DNA of 64,000 nt from assembly GCA_965233585.1 (NCBI GenBank), contig CBDDTI010000747.1, positions 128,001 through 192,000 on the forward strand. Reading direction: 5' to 3'. The translations under genes and the position numbers were made by a program. Positions within the stretch are counted from its first letter, which is position 1. Each line of letters starts with the position of its first letter. Origin of the DNA: a bacterium (GTDB taxonomy: Bacteria > SAR324 > NAC60-12). This document shows, in pieces, positions 32,608-43,613 of the stretch. The notes beneath the pieces were generated by a model that made no database searches, had not been told where the DNA came from, and saw only the letters and a program-made list of their open reading frames with translations.

Positions 32608-33010
32608 TGTCATTGCTCACTTTGAAAACCTTCATTGCGGGTTTGACCCGCAATCTCCTTTGTTTCCTAAACGACCCCGTCATTGCTCACTTTAAAAAAC
32701 CGCCATTGCGGGCGTGTCTTGGTCATTGGGGACCTGACCCGCAATCTTCTTTGTTTTTTCTTCTTCGTTCACTTTTTTTGAGATTCCACATCAAGTGCGG
32801 AATGACGGAGGACGTTTGAGATTCCGTGTCAAGCACGGAATGACAAAGAACGTCTTTACCTTGAAACCCGTCATTGCGGGCTTGACCCACAATCTGCCCT
32901 TGTCTTTTTCCCAATAATTCCTTTTTTTTAGATTCCGTGTCAGGCACGGAATGACGGGAGCATCATTGCTTAACTTGAAAACTGTCATTGCGGGCTTGAC
33001 CCACAATCTC
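32608..33010. repeat. Dense cluster of palindromic REP-like repeats (at least 7 copies)
   Basis: Copies at about 32631, 32722, 32780, 32818, 32870, 32929 and 32984, plus GTCATTGCTCACTTT half-sites. Confidence 0.9.
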
Positions 33011-33100: not shown

Positions 33101-33283
33101 ATGACCGATGAAGAACTCAAACAGCTGGTGGCTTCGTTAGCCATCTCACAAGCCAAAACCGATGAACAACTTGCTGAAGGAAATCGGCAAATTCAAGAAT
33201 TCCGGAGTTCCCAAGCAGAAACGACTTTGCAACTTCAGGGACTTAGAGCGGCAGTGGCAAGCATAATGAGCATGAGTCTGTGA
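33101..33283 (+). pseudogene. Truncated N-terminus of a coiled-coil protein (DUF3782-like)
   Basis: Strong AAGGAG RBS; MTDEELKQLVASLAISQAKTDEQ...SQAET; runs into the antisense of the SNF2 relic at about 33250. Confidence 0.55.
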
Positions 33284-33985
33284 GTTTTTAATTTTGTGGC
33301 TTTCATCAACAATTAAAAGGTCTATCTTGAGAATATTTTTGATCGTGTCTAATCCTGTTTTTCTGTTTGTGCCTTTCCATAAAGTCTCAGAAAGCAGACT
33401 GTAAGGAATGATGGCTTTGCTGTAACGTCTTGGCCATTCACCCTCCATGTCTGTTTGTGAAACACAGTACTGGAGTGTCTTGCCGTCCAGTTCAACAAAA
33501 TCTTCTTGAAATCGTTTAAATTCCAAACTCCATTTGCGATCTATGACCAAAGGTTTAGGACAGATGACAAACACGTTTTCCATGGTCTGACGTGCTTGCA
33601 GTTCTTTAAAAATTAAGCAAGTTTCAATGGTTTTTCCAACACCCACATCATCGGCAATCAATAGTCTAGGAGAAGACGCCTTCAGAAACTTCAAAACAGG
33701 TCTGTATTGATAAGGCACAAAGTCCACATCACCGCTATTAGGAGAGCCGACCAAAAAAGTTCCCGGTGCATGCAAGACTTCTGCTGTGATTCTTGCCTTC
33801 AAAAGTTTCAAACTGGCTTCAGTCTTGACCTCCTCAAAAAGAGTGAGTTGCTCGGCATAAAACTTTTGAATAGAGCCATTGATAAAAACAGAATATTGAA
33901 AACTTTCACCAAAACGTTCGGCTTCTACAATCACTCCTCTCAGCTCAGGGTTAGACTTCACTTGAACAATGTCGTGTTTTTTCAT
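33250..33985 (-). pseudogene. Truncated SNF2-family helicase (N-terminal part only)
   Basis: PYQ..P, LLIADDVGVGKTIE (motif I), LLIVDESHK (motif II); later helicase motifs absent. Confidence 0.8.
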
Positions 33986-35144: not shown

Positions 35145-35234
35145 CTTCTTTTTAGTAATTTATTTTTGAAAAACTTCTTTTTGAATTGATTTTGAACAAC
35201 TCATTTCACCATTGTTCTTCTCATTATTTCATCA

Positions 35235-35522
35235 TTGTTCAAAGACAATGAAGGACAATTTGCTTGCAAATTCTCATCAAAGTATCATACTTTGAAAATT
35301 TTTGGGCAAGGTTTGCCTAATCAAATCAATCAAAAACACTCGTTCTACTGAACAACCATGGCGACATTACAACAACACTTGCAAACACTAAAGGAACATT
35401 CGCATAACACCAGGGAACAAGGGGCATCGTTTGAAAAGCTGATGCAAGCCTTTTTGTTGAAAGACAAAGAACAACAACAACGTTTTTCAAATTTTAAAAA
35501 ACTCCAGCATTTTGTCTTTTAA
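35235..35522 (+). pseudogene. Diverged copy of the upstream region and first ~44 codons of the Type ISP gene
   Basis: Aligns with about 36200-36477; ORF 35358-35522 begins MATLQQHLQTLKEHSHNTREQGASFEKLMQAFLLKDKEQQQRFSN and then diverges. Confidence 0.85.
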
Positions 35523-35550
35523 ATAGAAGTTTGTTAGGCTTATCTACGTT

Positions 35551-35727
35551 ATGAAACAAATATTAGTAGTCTATCTGACTTTAAGTCTGATTGGTTTTGG
35601 TTATCTTATTGGATATGTCATAGAAGAAATAGCCACCGTACAGGAGTTATCATTCTTATTTTGGGGACTTTTTATTGTTCATATCAGTAGTCTATTGGGT
35701 TTATATCTTTTAAAAGGAGACGATTAA
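35551..35727 (+). CDS. Small two-TM hypothetical protein (58 aa)
   Basis: MKQILVVYLTLSLIGFGYLIGYVIEEIATVQELSFLFWGLFIVHISSLLGLYLLKGDD; below the ORF-track cutoff. Confidence 0.45.
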   Translation: MKQILVVYLTLSLIGFGYLIGYVIEEIATVQELSFLFWGLFIVHISSLLGLYLLKGDD

Positions 35728-35728
35728 A

Positions 35729-35824
35729 ATGCTAGAGCTTATCACTGTGTTATTTGTTGCTTGCCCTGTTGCTTGTCTTGTCATTGTCATATTAGAGAAG
35801 CGAAAAAAGAACCAAGTCATTTGA
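35729..35824 (+). CDS. Small hydrophobic peptide (31 aa)
   Basis: AAGGAG RBS; MLELITVLFVACPVACLVIVILEKRKKNQVI. Confidence 0.45.
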   Translation: MLELITVLFVACPVACLVIVILEKRKKNQVI

Positions 35825-35841
35825 ACAAGATTCAAGGAAGA

Positions 35842-35943
35842 ATGACAAGCTATCTCATCATCGGTACAACCATCATCTTTAGTGTTTCATGTGCTAAAGA
35901 GATTTACATCGCCTATAAAAAATCATCAAAATCTAATCAGTAA
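35842..35943 (+). CDS. Small hydrophobic peptide (33 aa)
   Basis: AAGGA RBS; MTSYLIIGTTIIFSVSCAKEIYIAYKKSSKSNQ. Confidence 0.4.
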   Translation: MTSYLIIGTTIIFSVSCAKEIYIAYKKSSKSNQ

Positions 35944-38900
35944 AAAGGAACAAGATGCTGGCAACAATGGTCATATCAGCCGCTAGTATTTTTTAGTGAC
36001 AACATGATTTGGTTGTTACTTTGCCATCTCAAAATCACAAAGTTGACAACTTCCCTGACTGATGACTTCTTTTTTCCAAGAGCTTAAAAAATGATTTGAC
36101 TCATTGTAGCTTCAGCTTGTTTTAGTAATCTACCTTCTAAATAATCCATTTCATCATTTTTGGAACGATTCATCATCATCATTGTTTTTTGTTCTTTTGA
36201 TTGTTCAAAGTCAATAAAAAAATAATCAAGGTCAATCAAGGACAATTTGCTTGCAAATTCTTATCAAAGTATCATAATTCAAAAATTTTTGGGCAAGGTT
36301 TGTCTAATCAAATCAATCAACAACACTTCATTTCACTGAACAACCATGACGACATTACAACAACATCTGCAAACACTAAAGGAACATTCTCACAACAACA
36401 GAGAACGAGGACTTTTGTTTGAAAAGCTGATGCAAGCCTTTTTGCTAAAAGACAAAGAACAACAACGTTTTTCAAACGTCTGGCTTTGGAGTGAATGGGC
36501 AGAACAGCAACAAATCTCAAAAACAGACACAGGCATTGACTTGGTCGCACAGCAACGTGACGGAACGCTTTGTGCCATTCAATGTAAGTTTTATGACGAA
36601 CAGCATACGTTGCAAAAGTCAGACATTGACAGTTTTTTTACAGCATCAGGCAAGGCATACAATCAGCAGACGTTTCAAAACCGTTTGATTATTTCAACCA
36701 CTGACAAATGGAGCAAGCATGCAGACGAAGCCTTACAAAAACAGCAGATTCCATGCTCAAGACTAGGCGTGCAAGATTTGACTCAAAACTCATCTATCAA
36801 AGATTGGGGTGATTTGCAAAATCCTCAAAGCACCATTCAAGTTGATGAGCGTAAAAAGACCCCTAGACCGCACAAAGGGACGCCATCAATGCCGTGTTAC
36901 AAGGATTGCAAAGTGCTGATGAGGGCAAGCTCATCATGGCTTGTGGCACAGGCAAAACCCTGACTGCTCTTTGGGTTATGGAAGAATGGCTTAAAACGCA
37001 AGAGTCTCAAGACAAAGAAGGCGTCAAAAATGACCAGTTTGTCTTGTTTCTTGTGCCTTCACTGGCTTTGCTTTCCCAGACGATGAAGGAATGGGCAAGG
37101 GAACAAAATCAAGGCATGCCGCAACGTGTCTTTGCTGTCTGTTCTGATGCCAAAGTTGGCAAGAACGAAGAAGATTTACAAATCTCTGACCTCACCATTC
37201 CCCCAACCACTGATGCCAGCGATTTGGCAAAGCATCTGAAAACGATTCAATACGGTCGGGTCAATGTGGTCTTTTCTACTTATCAATCCTTAGCAGTCAT
37301 TCAAGAGGCTCAAAATGAACATGACGCACCAGCTTTTGACCTAGTGATTTGTGATGAAGCACACCGCACCACTGGCATTGATAAATCTGCAGGACTTGAC
37401 AAAGCCCAAGCAAGCAAGGTTGTCAAACCCTCTCATTTCAATTTAATCCATGACAAGGAGGCAATCCAAGCCAAGAAGCAACTTTACATGACTGCTACGC
37501 CAAGAATTTATGCAGACAGTGCCAAATCCAAAGCCAAAGAACACAACGTGCAAGTCTTTTCAATGGACGATAAAGCAGTTTACGGTAGCGAATTTTATAG
37601 GCTGGACTTTAGCGAAGCAGTGAAAAGAGATTTGTTGACCGATTACAAAGTCATCGTGTTGAGTGTGTCTGAAAATGCGGTTGACTTGGCAATGCAAGGA
37701 GTTTTGGCAACGTCAGGCGAGCTAAAATTGCCAGACCTTGCTAAGCTGTTTGGCTGTTGGTCTGGACTGGCAAAAAAGATTGCCACACCTACAAAAGAAG
37801 AAGCTGATGCCCTCAAGATTGACCCACTTCCCATGAAACGAGCCGTTGCTTTTTGCAAAGACATCAAAACCTCCAAAGCCATTCAAAACAGCTTTGCCAA
37901 CATGCTGACCTATTTTGCCAAAAATAATCCTGAACTGAACATCAATTTGCAATGTGAAACGCAACATGTGGACGGCACCATGAATGCGTTGCAACGAAAC
38001 GAAAAACTACGTTGGCTCAAAGACGAGTCTGAAAAGCAAAATGAATCTGCAAATGTTTGTCGGATTTTGAGTAATGCACGTTGTTTGTCTGAAGGAGTGG
38101 ACGTGCCTGCACTGGATGCCGTGTTGTTTTTGAACCCCAGAAAGTCGCAAATTGATGTCGTGCAAGCGGTGGGTCGTGTCATGCGGAAGTCAGAGGGCAA
38201 GAAGTATGGCTACATCATTTTGCCAATCGCAGTGCCTGCCTCTGACTCACCAGAGGACTCACTCAATCAACAACAAACTTATGAGGTAGTCTGGCAGATT
38301 TTACAAGCATTGCGTTCTCACGATGACCGATTCAATGCCATGATTAACAAGCTGGAACTCAACAAAAAGAAACCGCACAATCTCATCATTGGAACTCCTG
38401 AACACTTGCCTGATGAAAAAACTGAACAACTGACGATTGACTTTCCCCTTGATGACTTTTCTAATGCCATTTATGCCAAGTTAGTCCTGAAGTGTGGCGA
38501 CCGCACCTATTGGGAAAACTGGGCAAACGATGTTGCCACCATTGCACAGCGAAACATTGCCAGAATCAACAACCTCATTCAACACAATCAAAGTTGTCAA
38601 GATTTGTTTGCTGAATTTTTAAAAAGCCTTCAGGCAAACCTCAATCCCAGCCTTGACCAAAATGAAGCGATTGAGATGCTGGCACAACATGTCATCACCA
38701 AACCTGTCTTCAATGCCTTGTTTGAAGGTTATGACTTTGCTGAACACAATCCTATTTCTCAAAGCATGCAAACGGTGCTGGATTTGCTGGAAGACGAAGG
38801 CTTGGACAAAGAGACAGGAGATTTGGCAAAGTTTTATGAAAGCGTCAGAGACCGAGCCAAAGACATTGACAATTTAGAAGGCAAGCAACGGATTATCATT

Positions 38901-39285
38901 GAATTGTATGACAAATTTTTCAAAACCGCTTTCCCCAAAGTCACGGAACGGCTGGGCATTGTTTACACTCCTGTTGAAGTGGTGGACTTCATCTTACACT
39001 CGGTGCAACACCTCTTGCATCAAGAATTTGGACGCAGTTTGTCTGACGAAGGCATTCATGTTCTTGACCCCTTCACTGGCACAGGCACGTTCATCACAAG
39101 ACTTTTGCAAGACCCAATGCTCATCAATGATGCTGACCTTGAACGCAAATACAACCAAGAACTGCATGCCAACGAACTTGTTTTGCTTGCTTACTACATT
39201 GCGACCATCAACATTGAAAATGCCTTTCATCATCGTTTGGAACAAGCAAAGGGTAATGGCAAAACAGGTCAACAAAAGCACACCC

Positions 39286-39350
39286 GTCATTCCGTGCTTG
39301 ACACGGAATCTCAAAACAAGAGTGAGATTGCGGATCAAGTCCGCAATGAC
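39286..39350. repeat. Inverted doublet of palindromic repeats inside the Type ISP coding region
   Basis: GTCATTCCGTGCTTGACACGGAATCTC-11nt-GAGATTGCGGATCAAGTCCGCAATGAC. Confidence 0.92.
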
Positions 39351-39941
39351 TTGGGAAGCGAGGGGAATGAAGAAAGCCGAGAACACCAATATCAACCTTT
39401 TCAAGGGGCTGTCTTGACCGACACTTTTCAAATGGCAGAAAAACAAAGCAACTTTCAAGACAAGATTTTCCAAGAAAACCGAGACCGTGCCAACCAACAA
39501 AACCAAGCACCGATTCAAGTCATCATTGGCAACCCGCCTTACTCCGCAGGTCAACGGTCTGCCAATGACAACAACCAAAACCTCAAATATGAAATTTTAG
39601 ATGACCAAATTGCAAAATCTTATGTGAAAGAATCAAGAAGCACAACCAGAACCAGTGTTTATGATTCCTACATCAGAGCGATTAAATGGGGAAGTGAACG
39701 ATTGGGAAACAAAGGCATCATGGCACTGGTCACCAATGCAGGTTGGATTGAAAGCAATTCAGCAGATGGCATGAGAAAATGCCTACAACAAGACTTTAGC
39801 AGCATTTATGTTTTTCACTTGCGGGGGAATGCACGAACACAAGGAGAGCAAAGACGCAAAGAAAAAGATAACATTTTTGAAGAAGGAAGCAGAACCCCGA
39901 TTGCGATTACTTTTTTTGTGAAGAATCCAGAGTCCTCATCA

Positions 39942-40073
39942 GTCATTCCGTGCCTAGACACGGAATCTATCGTCAATCAAGGCGTGGATTCCTGCTTCGC
40001 TCCGAATGACGAAAGAAACGAGAATGAGATTGCGGGTCAAGCCCGCAATGACAAAAAGCAAGTCCGCAATGAC
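39942..40073. repeat. Palindromic repeat cluster inside the Type ISP coding region
   Basis: Copies at 39942 and 40026, a degenerate copy near 39987, half copy at 40059. Confidence 0.88.
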
Positions 40074-41282
40074 GAAGACAGTGCGGGTTGCCAAATCTAC
40101 TATCACGACATTGGCGATTATTTGACAAGAGATGAAAAGCTAAAAATCATCAAAGGCTTTGGCAGCATGGCAGGCATTTCATCAGGCAAAACGTGGTCAG
40201 ACATTGGTTTTCATTCTGAAAAAGCAAGGTCTTTACAAACAGGCTGGCAAACCATCACACCAGACAAACATCACGATTGGATCAACCAACGAGACGACTC
40301 TTTCAATGACCACCTTCAAATTGGAAACAAAAAAGACAACACAGGCAAAGTTTTTTTTAAAAATTATTCAAGTGGTGTGATTACACAGCGTGATGTGTGG
40401 GTTTATCATTCTTCCAAAACGGAGTTGGAAACCAATGTCAGAGCCATGATTAATTTTTACAATTCCGAAGTGCGACGATGGCAAAAGTCCAATCAAAGTT
40501 TAGATGTCAAAGATTTTGTCAACAATGACCCTACTAAAATGGCTTGGATTAAGAAAAGTTATGATCAATGCAGACAAGCTAAAACTCATTCTTATCAAAG
40601 TCATTTTTTAACAATAAGTCTTTATCGTCCCTTTCAAAAGCAGTGGTTTTATTCTGATCTTTCATTAAGTCACAGTTTTTATTCCATGCCCCAAATCTTC
40701 CCTAATCCAGATTTGCCTAACAAAGTGATTTGTGTGAGTGGTGTTGGTTCTAACAAAGATTTTTCATGTCTCATAGCTGATACGTTGCCTGATATTCAGG
40801 TTATGTTTAATGGTCAATGTTTTCCGTTGTTTTTGTATGAGAAGGAAAAGAAAGATCAAAAAGAAATGTTAGAGGAAGAAAGACAAATTTTTCTGGAGAA
40901 TGGAGAGAGTTATCGGCAAACAGACGGCATCACTGACTTTGCGTTAAGGGAGTTTTTCGCGTTTTACTCTTCAGATGATTCCCTCCAGACAAGGAGGGTT
41001 AGGGAGGTTTTGAACAAAGAAAATATTTTTTATTATATTTATGGGATTTTGCATAGTGTGGAATATCGTGAGAAGTTTGCAGACAACTTAAGTAAGCAGT
41101 TGCCACGGATTCCAAAGGTCAAAAGTTTTGTAGACTTTCAAAAGTTTTCTCAAGCAGGTCGTGAGTTAGCAGACTTGCATTTGAATTATGAAAACGTCCC
41201 GCTTTATCCTGTCTCTTTTCAAACTTCATCAGCTTTGGAAGGCTTACAAGCGAAACCTGACGGGATAGTCCAGAACAAGAAT

Positions 41283-41309
41283 GAGATTGCGGGTCAAGCC
41301 CGCAATGAC
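41283..41309. repeat. Palindromic repeat inside the Type ISP gene next to the second frameshift
   Basis: GAGATTGCGGGTCAAGCCCGCAATGAC. Confidence 0.9.
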
Positions 41310-41731
41310 GCAGGAAGCGAGGGAAATGAACACCGCCAGCAATTACGTTCACAAGATGAAATTTGCCAACAAAGCAGACAAAAGCATCGTCATTTACAAC
41401 GAACACATCACGATTGCAGACATTCCACTGGAGGCTTACGATTACATCGTCAATGGCAAACCTGCGTTGGAATGGGTGATGGAAAGGCAAGGAGTCCGCA
41501 CTCACAAAGATTCGCAAATCACCAACGATGCCAATTTGTTTGCTACCGAAACGATGCACAATGCCAAATACCCGCTTGAACTCTTCTGCCGTGTCATCAC
41601 CGTCAGCCTTGAAACCATGAAGATTGTCAATCACTTGCCAAAATTGGAGTTTTAGATTTGTCTTTTGCTTTGCCTGTTCATTTTGCGTCAGGCAGGCAAT
41701 CAATTCTTTTTCTTTGTTTTGCCCTTGTCCC

Positions 41732-41845
41732 GTCATTGCGGGCTTGACCCGCAATCTCTTTTTTTCATTTTGTGTTCACTCTTTTTTGAGATTCCGTGTC
41801 AAGCACGGAATGACAGGAGGATTTTGAGACTTCGTGTCAAGCACT
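41732..41845. repeat. Inverted doublet of palindromic repeats plus a partial copy (intergenic)
   Basis: Copies at 41732-41758 and 41788-41814; partial at 41827. Confidence 0.92.
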
Positions 41846-41874: not shown

Positions 41875-42207
41875 TCAGGCAGGCACAACCATTTTATCAC
41901 TCATAAAATCTTCTAAGGTTTTGATGATGTCTTCGTTTGCCCCTTGACCTTGCAAAGTTTGTTTTAAAACTTGAAAATCAGCATGTCTAAAGCTGTATGC
42001 TGTTCGTTCCCTATTTTCTATGGCTTGTTTCATCAGCCCAATCAGCTTGTCTTCTTCATCTTTTGGCATAGGAACGTAGTCATCTCCATTTTCTATGGAT
42101 TCAATCAATTCTTTTTCTTCGTCGTCAAGATAAGGGAAGTCATCAGTTTCTCCCCTTAAATATCTTTGGTATTGTTCTCTGTTTTTTTCTGTATCACGAT
42201 GATTCAT
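41875..42207 (-). CDS. Putative antitoxin paired with the BrnT-like toxin
   Basis: Acidic LDDEEKELIESIE segment; start overlaps the toxin stop codon. Confidence 0.6.
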   Translation of the reverse strand: MNHRDTEKNREQYQRYLRGETDDFPYLDDEEKELIESIENGDDYVPMPKDEEDKLIGLMKQAIENRERTAYSFRHADFQVLKQTLQGQGANEDIIKTLEDFMSDKMVVPA

Positions 42208-42506
42208 AATGACCTTTTAACGTTATAGATTTTATTATATTTCCTACTTTGATAGATTGTTTTTAAAAAAATTTTTGACCCATCATATACAAACGGGACG
42301 CAATTAATGTAATTTTCAATGAGAATGATTAACATCTTTTGATTTTTATAATTTGGGTTATCTATGATGCCAATATATTCATTTTGTCTTATTAGATTGG
42401 CAACCATCTTAAAACTGATTCCTCTTTCTCTCTTGAGCCAGTCATTTTTTAGTTCATTCCATTCAATCGGTATTTCCCCTATATTTTCAACCTCTAAAAC
42501 TTTCAT
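42204..42506 (-). CDS. BrnT-like (DUF497) ribonuclease toxin
   Basis: EWNELKNDWLKRERGISF...VPFV...IFLKTIYQSRK. Confidence 0.78.
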   Translation of the reverse strand: MKVLEVENIGEIPIEWNELKNDWLKRERGISFKMVANLIRQNEYIGIIDNPNYKNQKMLIILIENYINCVPFVYDGSKIFLKTIYQSRKYNKIYNVKRSL

Positions 42507-42556
42507 TTTGCATTAGGCATTCAATCCATTCTTTTTCTTTGTTGTCCCCTTGCCCC

Positions 42557-42622
42557 GTCATTACGGACTTATTCCGCAATCTCACTTCAGTTTTTGAGAT
42601 TCCGTGTCAGGCACGGAATGAC
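42557..42622. repeat. Inverted doublet of palindromic repeats between the two TA loci
   Basis: GTCATTACGGACTTATTCCGCAATCTC-12nt-GAGATTCCGTGTCAGGCACGGAATGAC. Confidence 0.9.
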
Positions 42623-42646
42623 GAAAGGAGTTTGCAGTTTGTTCCT

Positions 42647-43084
42647 TTAATTCAAAAAATCTTCTAAATACAAAATTTCTAAACCTTCAATCACTTTAAA
42701 TTGTTTATCATTTGTAACTATTGAAGAACAACCACTTTGTATTGCTGTTGCGATATGAATTGCATCAAAAAGTTTTATTTGATGTTCCGCTCTAATTTCT
42801 GATGACTTGATCAAGATTTCTGTATTTATTGGTTTACATTGGATGTAAGAATTAAAAAGTATCGCTTGCATATAAATCTCTTCTAATTTCTTATCTTTAT
42901 CTCGTTTTGGTTTGACCAAACATTCTGCAAGTGTCAATGAACTGGTAATCATTCCATTGACTCCAGTATCCAAATATTCAAGAAATTGATTTGCTAAATT
43001 TTCATATTTGCCTACTTCTTCAATCGCATATATGAATATGTTGGTATCAAAATATAGTAAATTACTAAAATAGTTGACTGTCAT
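42647..43084 (-). CDS. vapC: PIN-domain toxin
   Basis: YFDTNIFIY, TLAE, DAIHIATA, VTND. Confidence 0.88.
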   Translation of the reverse strand: MTVNYFSNLLYFDTNIFIYAIEEVGKYENLANQFLEYLDTGVNGMITSSLTLAECLVKPKRDKDKKLEEIYMQAILFNSYIQCKPINTEILIKSSEIRAEHQIKLFDAIHIATAIQSGCSSIVTNDKQFKVIEGLEILYLEDFLN

Positions 43085-43338
43085 TCACTTCTTAGATTGC
43101 GAATAAATGCATTCACTTCTTCAGTTGTTTCAAAACTCCTATGTTCTTTACCCATTCCCCACATACTTTTTAAATCAATATATTTCTTTTCTCTTGGCTG
43201 TATAGTTTGAGGCTCCAAAATGATTTTTCCATTTTCAGCTTTGGCTTCTAGGGTGTCTCCTTCACTAATTCCAATCTCTCTACGAACTGCAACAGGAATT
43301 GTAATTTGGCATTTTTGTTTGACTTTGACATAAGGCAT
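43081..43338 (-). CDS. AbrB/MazE-family antitoxin
   Basis: VKQKCQITIPVAVRREIGISEGD; GGAG RBS before ATG 43338. Confidence 0.88.
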   Translation of the reverse strand: MPYVKVKQKCQITIPVAVRREIGISEGDTLEAKAENGKIILEPQTIQPREKKYIDLKSMWGMGKEHRSFETTEEVNAFIRNLRSE

Positions 43339-43613
43339 GGCATTCTCCAGTTTGATGATAGAGTTAAAAAGCAAGAATTTAACAGATGAGAGACTTCATT
43401 GTAAAGACTTTGTCCTTCCTCAAATTCAAAAATTCTCTTCAAATCAAAGCCTTGTTTTCTTCCTTTGGGGAATTTATTTTTGACTGGTTCTTTAAGCGAG
43501 GAACAAGAATTTTTTAGGGTTTCAGGAGATTTTTGATTTTTTTGGTAACTCTTTCCTAACAATCTGCTATCATACTCTGGAATCGTTTGAAGGTTTGAAA
43601 ATCAGTTGAAGGA

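Follow-up and report, generated by a model that had tools for sequence, protein, structure and literature searches.

Within the 64,000-nt stretch of contig CBDDTI010000747.1 (C747) that forms the window of this analysis, and to which all coordinates given without a contig prefix refer, a Type ISP restriction-modification (R-M) gene spans positions 36346-41655 and is now divided into three open reading frames (ORFs). Elements of a palindromic repeat family of the repetitive extragenic palindrome (REP) kind occupy three places in its coding sequence, as a sequence-only reading of this DNA had described, and both the REP cores and the spans of the corresponding sites in homologous proteins confirm their presence. 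The bacterial part of the assembly was taken as six contigs (2.96 Mb; genome 92% complete), which set the scope of the genome-wide counts below unless another is given.

The first of the three frames (36346..36963, forward strand, as are all parts of the gene) encodes an Mrr-type nuclease of 205 aa (Pfam Mrr_cat_2, E 1.6e-42) and represents the detached N-terminus; its final ~30 codons are out of frame, whereas in the homologue P0002 the sequence continues uninterrupted into the ATPase. Three-frame translation against homologues places a 1-nt frameshift at this nuclease/ATPase junction (36870..36876, ~36873), with no REP nearby. The main frame (36894..41579) encodes an SF2 ATPase, a coupler, a gamma-class N6-adenine methyltransferase (MTase), and the core and jaw of the target recognition domain (TRD); it is recognised by the Pfam models ResIII, ISP_coupler, Eco57I and Type_ISP_C, matches LlaGI with an E of 2e-302, and contains, in its translated frame, all three peptides quoted by the sequence-only reading. 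Register is kept to ~41340, beyond which the tail is out of frame. The last ~90 TRD positions, belonging to the guide, are found in a detached C-terminal frame (41281..41655; Type_ISP_C 254-342 of 342, E 6e-24), whose two candidate starts, ATG 41281 and ATG 41326, are both supplied by the third insert. The second frameshift sits within or immediately after that insert and severs Type_ISP_C positions 254-342, which correspond to the conserved guide subdomain in the available text of Kulkarni et al. (2016, PMC4872093).

The order of nuclease, ATPase, coupler, MTase and TRD is thus that of LlaGI and LlaBIII (PDB 5ffj and 4xqk; PMC4872093, available text), and the motifs GTGKT, DEAH, DPFTGTG and NPPY are all present; unlike those enzymes, the gene carries three REP inserts and two frameshifts and does not encode one polypeptide. 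It is best filed as a frameshifted Type ISP gene. The frame break at the third insert had been recognised earlier, and the REP-independent one near 36873 had been overlooked. Because the 5' break strips away the nuclease along with the beginning of the ATPase, and the 3' break most of the conserved guide subdomain, we infer from the sequence a recent loss of enzyme activity; on the strength of the same two breaks the gene is probably a young pseudogene, and the functional stakes of what follows are therefore lower. A promoter scan of 35150-36960 gave matches at chance level. One kilobase upstream lies a partial duplicate of the gene start, 254 nt at 88% identity (35239-35491 versus 36226-36476), which covers the upstream region and the first ~45 codons and ends in a stop.

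Since breaks and repeats of this kind may also be produced by assembly, contigs from four sequencing runs of one study were compared, of which X1-X3 derive from one sample, possibly the source of the assembly, and X4 from a second sample. Errors might be suspected in a bin as mixed as this one, in which ~9 of 12 Mb (741 of 747 contigs) are free of the REP family and poor in ORFs, so that it appears to consist mostly of non-bacterial DNA despite a reported contamination of 2%, and short-read-type contigs stop at every REP. The X1-X3 contigs do terminate inside REPs but enter each of them from both sides, and they tile the gene across both breaks with no differing letters and no gaps. The X4 contigs are identical at the 5' break, the 3' break lying beyond their coverage; they also carry an extra 1-nt loss at 37200, seen in one contig at a depth of 2.7 and possibly itself an error. 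That the frameshifts and inserts are artefacts is accordingly extremely improbable.

Under a strict definition the repeat family comprises 609 copies in 168 clusters, all within the six bacterial contigs; the strict pattern is found 228 times in C747 and never in its shuffled counterpart, nor does it occur in the initial 3 Mb of the remaining 741 contigs. A looser pattern, which had yielded 94 matches inside genes, was dropped because it gave 16 chance matches in shuffled C746. Copies occur in pairs and groups, and 156 of the 168 clusters lie outside called ORFs and 12 inside; one ordinary intergenic pair (41732..41814, no strand assigned) lies directly 3' of the Type ISP gene. Each unit consists of an NGTC tag (CGTC in 236 of 609 copies, TGTC in 185, AGTC in 113, GGTC in 39), an 8-bp stem starting with ATT, a loop of 4-6 nt and a short tail, and the DNA folds of the inserts show the typical core ATTGCGGG-CTTGA-CCCGCAAT and similar types.

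These features agree with the CGTC REP superfamily that Di Nocera et al. (2013, PMC3733652) describe, characterised in the available text by a CGTC or TGTC tag outside the stem, an AT-starting stem of 8-9 bp, a loop of 4-5 nt, and high copy number in mostly intergenic pairs or groups. Judged by sequence, the repeat fits that superfamily, with a different tail consensus: the 3-nt tail is CTC in 390 of the 609 copies, CTA in 90 and CCA in 74, whereas the CGTC-2-like definition has mostly CCA, and clusters are common here. There is also a likeness to the NTS repeats or Ssn-related motifs (SRM) treated by Chenal et al. (2025, PMC11893778, available text), which are likewise GTC-tagged hairpins with copies in the hundreds, clustered beside surface-protein genes, and which are rarely intragenic (2% in N. 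meningitidis). Unlike those, none of the 609 copies fits the published SRM search pattern, and no small GIY-YIG gene was found in the six contigs, their sole PF01541 match lying in a 648-aa frame, in a search that included no Ssn-specific query. With PF01797, used to search for RAYT genes, likewise unmatched in the genome, these candidate searches yielded no cognate mobiliser. A RAYT-like gene at C747:112027-112707 scores 65 bits against an NCBIfam cut-off of 80 and accompanies a different, GTAG-type repeat. Of 63 further genomes from the same order, 10 contain the REP pattern, with at most 31 copies in each, and the genes flanked by REP pairs in these relatives are housekeeping genes. Two further repeats appear among the over-represented words of the six contigs, one of ~245 copies containing AATTTCTACTGTTGTAG, which we presume to resemble a CRISPR repeat, and another of ~35 copies (TATCGCATATCACTTATAGTTTAACAATAC).

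The three inserts were delimited against 97 homologues (96 database proteins and the locus L002), and all are absent both from L002 and from P0002, which at 59% identity is the nearest of the intact homologues. Insert 1 (39245..39385, outer edges approximate; ~141 nt) lies in frame in the loop between MTase motifs I and IV and contains a REP pair at 39286-39310(+) and 39326-39350(-); it adds ~47 residues, giving a span of 67 aa at a site where the median is 20, where 67 of the 97 homologues have exactly 20, and where nine have at least 47. An intergenic copy matches it at 94% over 70 nt, and its A4 spacer is unique, like copies having A6 in five cases and A5 in one. Insert 2 (39928..40085; ~144 nt), also in frame, enlarges an MTase beta-hairpin by ~48 residues to 70 aa, the span in all 97 homologues being 22-23. 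Its REP cores lie at 39942-39967(+, with one extra base), 39987-40010(-, one base short) and 40028-40052(-), along with a partial fourth, and its closest intergenic twin is C746:327036-327186 (83% over 154 nt). That both insertions keep the frame and add peptide is therefore as the sequence-only reading had it.

Insert 3 (41240..41335), in the TRD guide subdomain as bounded in the available text of PMC4872093, contains one REP core, at 41285-41309(-), along with a REP remnant (41258-41264), and has its 3' flank in common with insert 1. The stretch from HLNYE to KMKF at this site measures 160 nt, not a multiple of three, against a median of 24 aa in the 72 of 97 homologues that match the pattern. 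As had been noticed earlier, this insert resembles the first and adjoins a frameshift. It is closest to insert 1, with which it has 67 nt in common at 84% identity; together with the near intergenic twins of the other two inserts, this suggests local copying. Within the six contigs the flank GGAAGCGAGGGRAATGAA is confined to inserts 1 and 3. In an AlphaFold model of residues 650-1440 the MTase fold is intact and matches LlaGI/LlaBIII (E 6e-55), with inserts 1 and 2 as low-confidence loops (predicted local distance difference test, pLDDT, below 50 for insert 1). Separately, the MTase-TRD junction (40180-40245) has ~21 residues beyond P0002 that are not REP-derived and have no long copy elsewhere in the bacterial contigs.

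Single-nucleotide indels occur in only 8 of 642 REP cores, and two of these eight fall in insert 2, a gain of one base followed ~45 nt later by a loss of one; the gain is unique among 86 like copies and the loss among 37. The nearest intergenic twin of this insert meets a stop codon when read in the frame of the gene, and among 142-nt REP windows in general no more than 14% of frame readings (368 of 2646) are free of stops. In each of the six clusters that lie inside genes in this genome, the unshifted cores are read in polar frames (HSVLDTES or EIAGQARND type) and never as VIPCLTRNL or RLRVKPAM. At the 339 near-invariant columns the protein retains 96.5%, compared with 96.2% in intact P0002. 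Because of these rare compensating indels, the A4 spacer, the polar frames and the retained columns, we infer selection on the reading frame after insertion and a recent loss of function, and the gene was probably alive with its inserts.

The account that we consider the more probable one, with appreciable but far from full confidence, is that three CGTC-type REP elements sit in loops of the Type ISP gene, having likely been inserted while it was translated and trimmed by indels, and that the gene is now probably a young pseudogene. REP hairpins would have entered loops of the still translated gene, small indels would then have trimmed the inserts until they could be read as open, polar loop peptides, and the two frameshifts would have followed. 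Two considerations weigh on the other side. Site 2 is never expanded elsewhere (97 of 97 proteins, 63 of 63 scored loci), so that tolerance there is argued from the model and the indels and nothing else; and the model itself shows where the inserts lie rather than that they are tolerated, as low pLDDT is to be expected for stretches that have no alignment rows.

An opposite order of events, in which the gene died first through the 5' frameshift and REPs then accumulated in neutral DNA, two of them in frame by luck, draws on the facts that the 5' break is free of REPs and common to both samples, that the second sample has the additional, possibly erroneous, loss at 37200, and that insert 3 adjoins the other break. 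Each insert of ~140 nt would, however, have needed both the right length (one chance in three) and a stop-free reading (14%), all three inserts fall in loops between conserved blocks, 4.4 kb have remained without a stop codon, the conserved columns are intact and compensating indels are present. This sequence of events appears quite unlikely; for inserts 1 and 2, the indels and the retained columns oppose a gene that was dead before the insertions, the outcome on which the sequence-only reading would have been given up.

A system that still works, either as split polypeptides or through frameshifts acting as reversible switches, would be compatible with pieces that are all open and have intact motifs, with the ATGs that insert 3 provides in frame with the C-terminal piece, and with the active translocase that remains when LlaGI is deleted for its nuclease (PMC4872093, available text). 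Against it, no long homopolymer and no evident slippery site is found at either break, the start of the main frame drops residues ahead of Walker A, the out-of-frame tail overlaps the C-terminal frame by ~300 nt, and a further indel is seen in the second sample, all of which makes continued function very unlikely.

Another question raised by the position of the inserts concerns target specificity, since the sequence-only reading had proposed that the repeats might promote specificity swapping. Under this proposal the REPs would serve as recombination sites exchanging MTase loops I-III, which inserts 1 and 2 bracket, or the TRD core with loops IV-VI, bracketed by inserts 2 and 3 (elements as in the available text of PMC4872093), and the idea that dRS3 repeats provide recombination homology is recounted by Chenal et al. 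(2025, PMC11893778, available text). A codon-usage shift does mark an AT-rich TRD segment (40350..41232; left edge 40338-40530, right edge 41076-41365) that is compositionally foreign, with an NNC share of 38/166 inside and 356/715 outside and a gain of 20.8 compared with at most 9.0 in 30 permutations, and the interval of its right edge takes in insert 3. The shift is real yet family-wide, for which reason a REP-driven swap was rejected as a candidate: among 72 other, REP-free Type ISP genes, 58 have a lower NNC share in the TRD than in the remainder of the gene, the difference being at least 0.15 in 24. Moreover, 250-450 nt separate the left edge from insert 2, the genome holds no second Type ISP TRD with REP flanks that could act as donor, no alternative TRD joint with long sides occurs in the contigs of the four runs (contigs drop rare variants), and recombination between direct copies would remove either motif IV or the core of the TRD. 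By its composition the segment probably stems from an older TRD exchange, a part for the REPs in that exchange is not supported, and REP-mediated swapping is highly improbable.

Beyond this gene, the genome as a whole offers a wider view of where REPs persist in coding sequence. Of the 12 clusters inside ORFs, three were set aside as lying in short or doubtful frames, and three are located at the C-terminus or in a read-through spacer of paralogous surface proteins (lipoproteins); one further apparent in-gene cluster lay upstream of a start. The surface-protein frames at C747:469437-472949 and C745:61774-66606 read through a REP-bearing stretch and are thereby fused to the next module, and their paralogue at C745:228238 ends at such a stretch. 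The remaining six clusters are internal to real genes: the Type ISP gene holds three, and a Type III Mod gene (C747:107301-109448), a Type III Res gene truncated by IS1 (C747:2919-4091) and a lipoprotein-like gene hold one each. Five of the six thus lie in three R-M genes, the chief class of gene inside which REPs persist here; the earlier description of a process repeatedly hitting one defence gene holds for the three inserts here and was too narrow for the genome. The 46 R-M genes, collected through six Pfam searches with bacterial matches, make up 2.7% of coding DNA (5.7% with both neighbours), and the probability that at least three of four REP-hit genes belong to them is 8e-5 to 7e-4, or 2e-3 to 9e-3 without the Type ISP gene. 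The six contigs are very rich in such genes, with 26 N6_N4_Mtase and nine N6_Mtase matches in 2.96 Mb, and the Pfam search found no C5 methylase on them.

Several results pull in the other direction. Counting the three surface-protein cases raises the probability to between 6e-4 and 6e-3, and to between 0.01 and 0.04 without the Type ISP gene; this is a post hoc test, based on four genes. Across 160 loci of other genomes, strong hairpins were found four times in 559 kb of R-M ORFs and twice in 247 kb of neighbouring ORFs, which is no excess in a count of low power whose loci were picked by best score. Convincing gene-internal REPs were lacking in 60 loci sampled among the matches listed for five relatives and two additional genomes from the family, three of the 60 lying before a start or in the antisense part of an open frame.

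If the bias is one of survival, it would most likely reflect tolerant surface loops in large enzymes, genes that may be dispensable over long spells and only sometimes useful, and the travel of R-M genes, with their inserts, between REP-rich hosts. A bias in insertion, with the mobilising enzyme or breaks near R-M genes steering REPs into them, would instead explain why a single gene holds three inserts and why five of the six internal clusters belong to R-M genes. It would also agree with 101 same-strand intergenic clusters among whose flanking ORF ends no REP-split gene of another kind is evident (fragments below 60 codons being uncalled), and with a RAYT-like gene that carries its own GTAG-type REPs inside a Type III operon. 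That gene, however, is paired with a different REP, of which all three copies lie in that operon, and falls short of its cut-off; the genome has no PF01797 match and its bacterial contigs only the lone GIY-YIG match in a long frame; ~43 other R-M genes are free of REPs; and the Mod and Res inserts may have arrived with their genes, because the closest homologues, P0242 (757 aa) and P0265 (980 aa), are full-length proteins with similar peptides at the corresponding sites. Steered insertion is therefore considered unlikely.

Homologues elsewhere suggest that the same loops have been entered in other lineages. Among Type ISP genes, the intact ORFs of L054 and L071 contain DNA palindromes at site 3, CGTC-like peptides are present in P0053 at sites 1 and 3 and in one more TRD loop, and REP-like inserts occur at site 1 in intact homologues, among the nine of 97 with at least 47 aa. 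The inserts of P0242, P0265 and P0053 were judged from peptides rather than DNA, and those of other homologues are probably REP peptides; a fixed REP-peptide pattern scored in two of 119 Type ISP, two of 119 Mod and none of 120 Res homologue matches. The Mod gene bears a second insert, a GTAG-type repeat found only in that operon, in a loop that measures 21 residues in 92 of 106 scored homologues and is occupied in others by varied repeat-like peptides or a DUF559 domain. In the Mod homologues P0144 and P0176 the insert at this loop reaches ~170 residues, and in P0144 it is a DUF559 nuclease domain between repeat-like peptides. The low-GC Type III operon itself (C747:107301-115478) consists of Mod, a TIR-NTPase resembling DS-8 (under the cut-off), the RAYT-like gene, which carries two GTAG-type repeats in tandem and in frame, and Res. 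Taken more broadly, R-M genes might act as the chief shelter and carrier of bacterial coding REPs, a few loops in each enzyme family being recolonised by unrelated REP families, the inserts being edited under selection by compensating indels to polar frames, the genes moving them between hosts, at times with a RAYT or DUF559 nuclease cassette, and the resident copy being refreshed to the local REP type; we put this forward tentatively, as an idea more likely to fail than to hold.

Set against known systems, the inserts are a new example of a known route to new peptide sequence, in-frame palindromic inserts having been described before. The proposal of a process like that of the Rickettsia palindromic elements (RPE) in another lineage is borne out in its outcome, namely in-frame REP-derived peptides at inserts 1 and 2 that homologues such as P0002 lack, and falls short in confining the process to one gene. 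RPE-4 and RPE-6 belong to the same superfamily, as CGTC-4 and CGTC-1 and together with dRS3 (Di Nocera et al., 2013, PMC3733652, available text), and likewise add peptides to coding genes; by analogy the present inserts behave like RPE, with no claim of membership in RPE-4 or RPE-6. In Rickettsia many unrelated genes carry such elements, whereas here six of 168 clusters are gene-internal, nearly all in R-M genes, and the Type ISP host gene is broken. The available text of Di Nocera et al. (2013, PMC3733652) also reports in-frame REPs in ORFs, double insertions per gene, one N-6 DNA methylase among the hosts (Oter_3011) and an intragenic bias toward DNA repair and synthesis genes; that part of the paper names no R-M bias and no frame-restoring indels, the word "restriction" having no match in the supplements. 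Judged by title and abstract start, no publication on a preference of intragenic REPs for R-M genes was found, in a search that left most of the subscription literature outside its scope. Insert 2 offers rare sequence evidence that a bacterium mended the reading frame of an inserted REP, a point relevant to the question of tolerance versus selection of such peptides; the genome-wide bias, together with the use of the same loops in other lineages, suggests a simple, testable route by which REP families may move between species, and loops of Type ISP and Type III enzymes are marked as accepting 20-50 extra residues.

In the surroundings of the gene, an ORF for an SNF2-type helicase (33146-33985, reverse strand, 279 aa), apparently a 5' fragment, ends near a REP cluster at 32631-33008. 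Directly downstream of the Type ISP gene, the reverse strand of 41875-43374 carries two toxin-antitoxin-like pairs, one BrnT-like and one PIN with MazE, with REP pairs between them, and the PIN/MazE pair has three further copies at C747:1007843-1010431.

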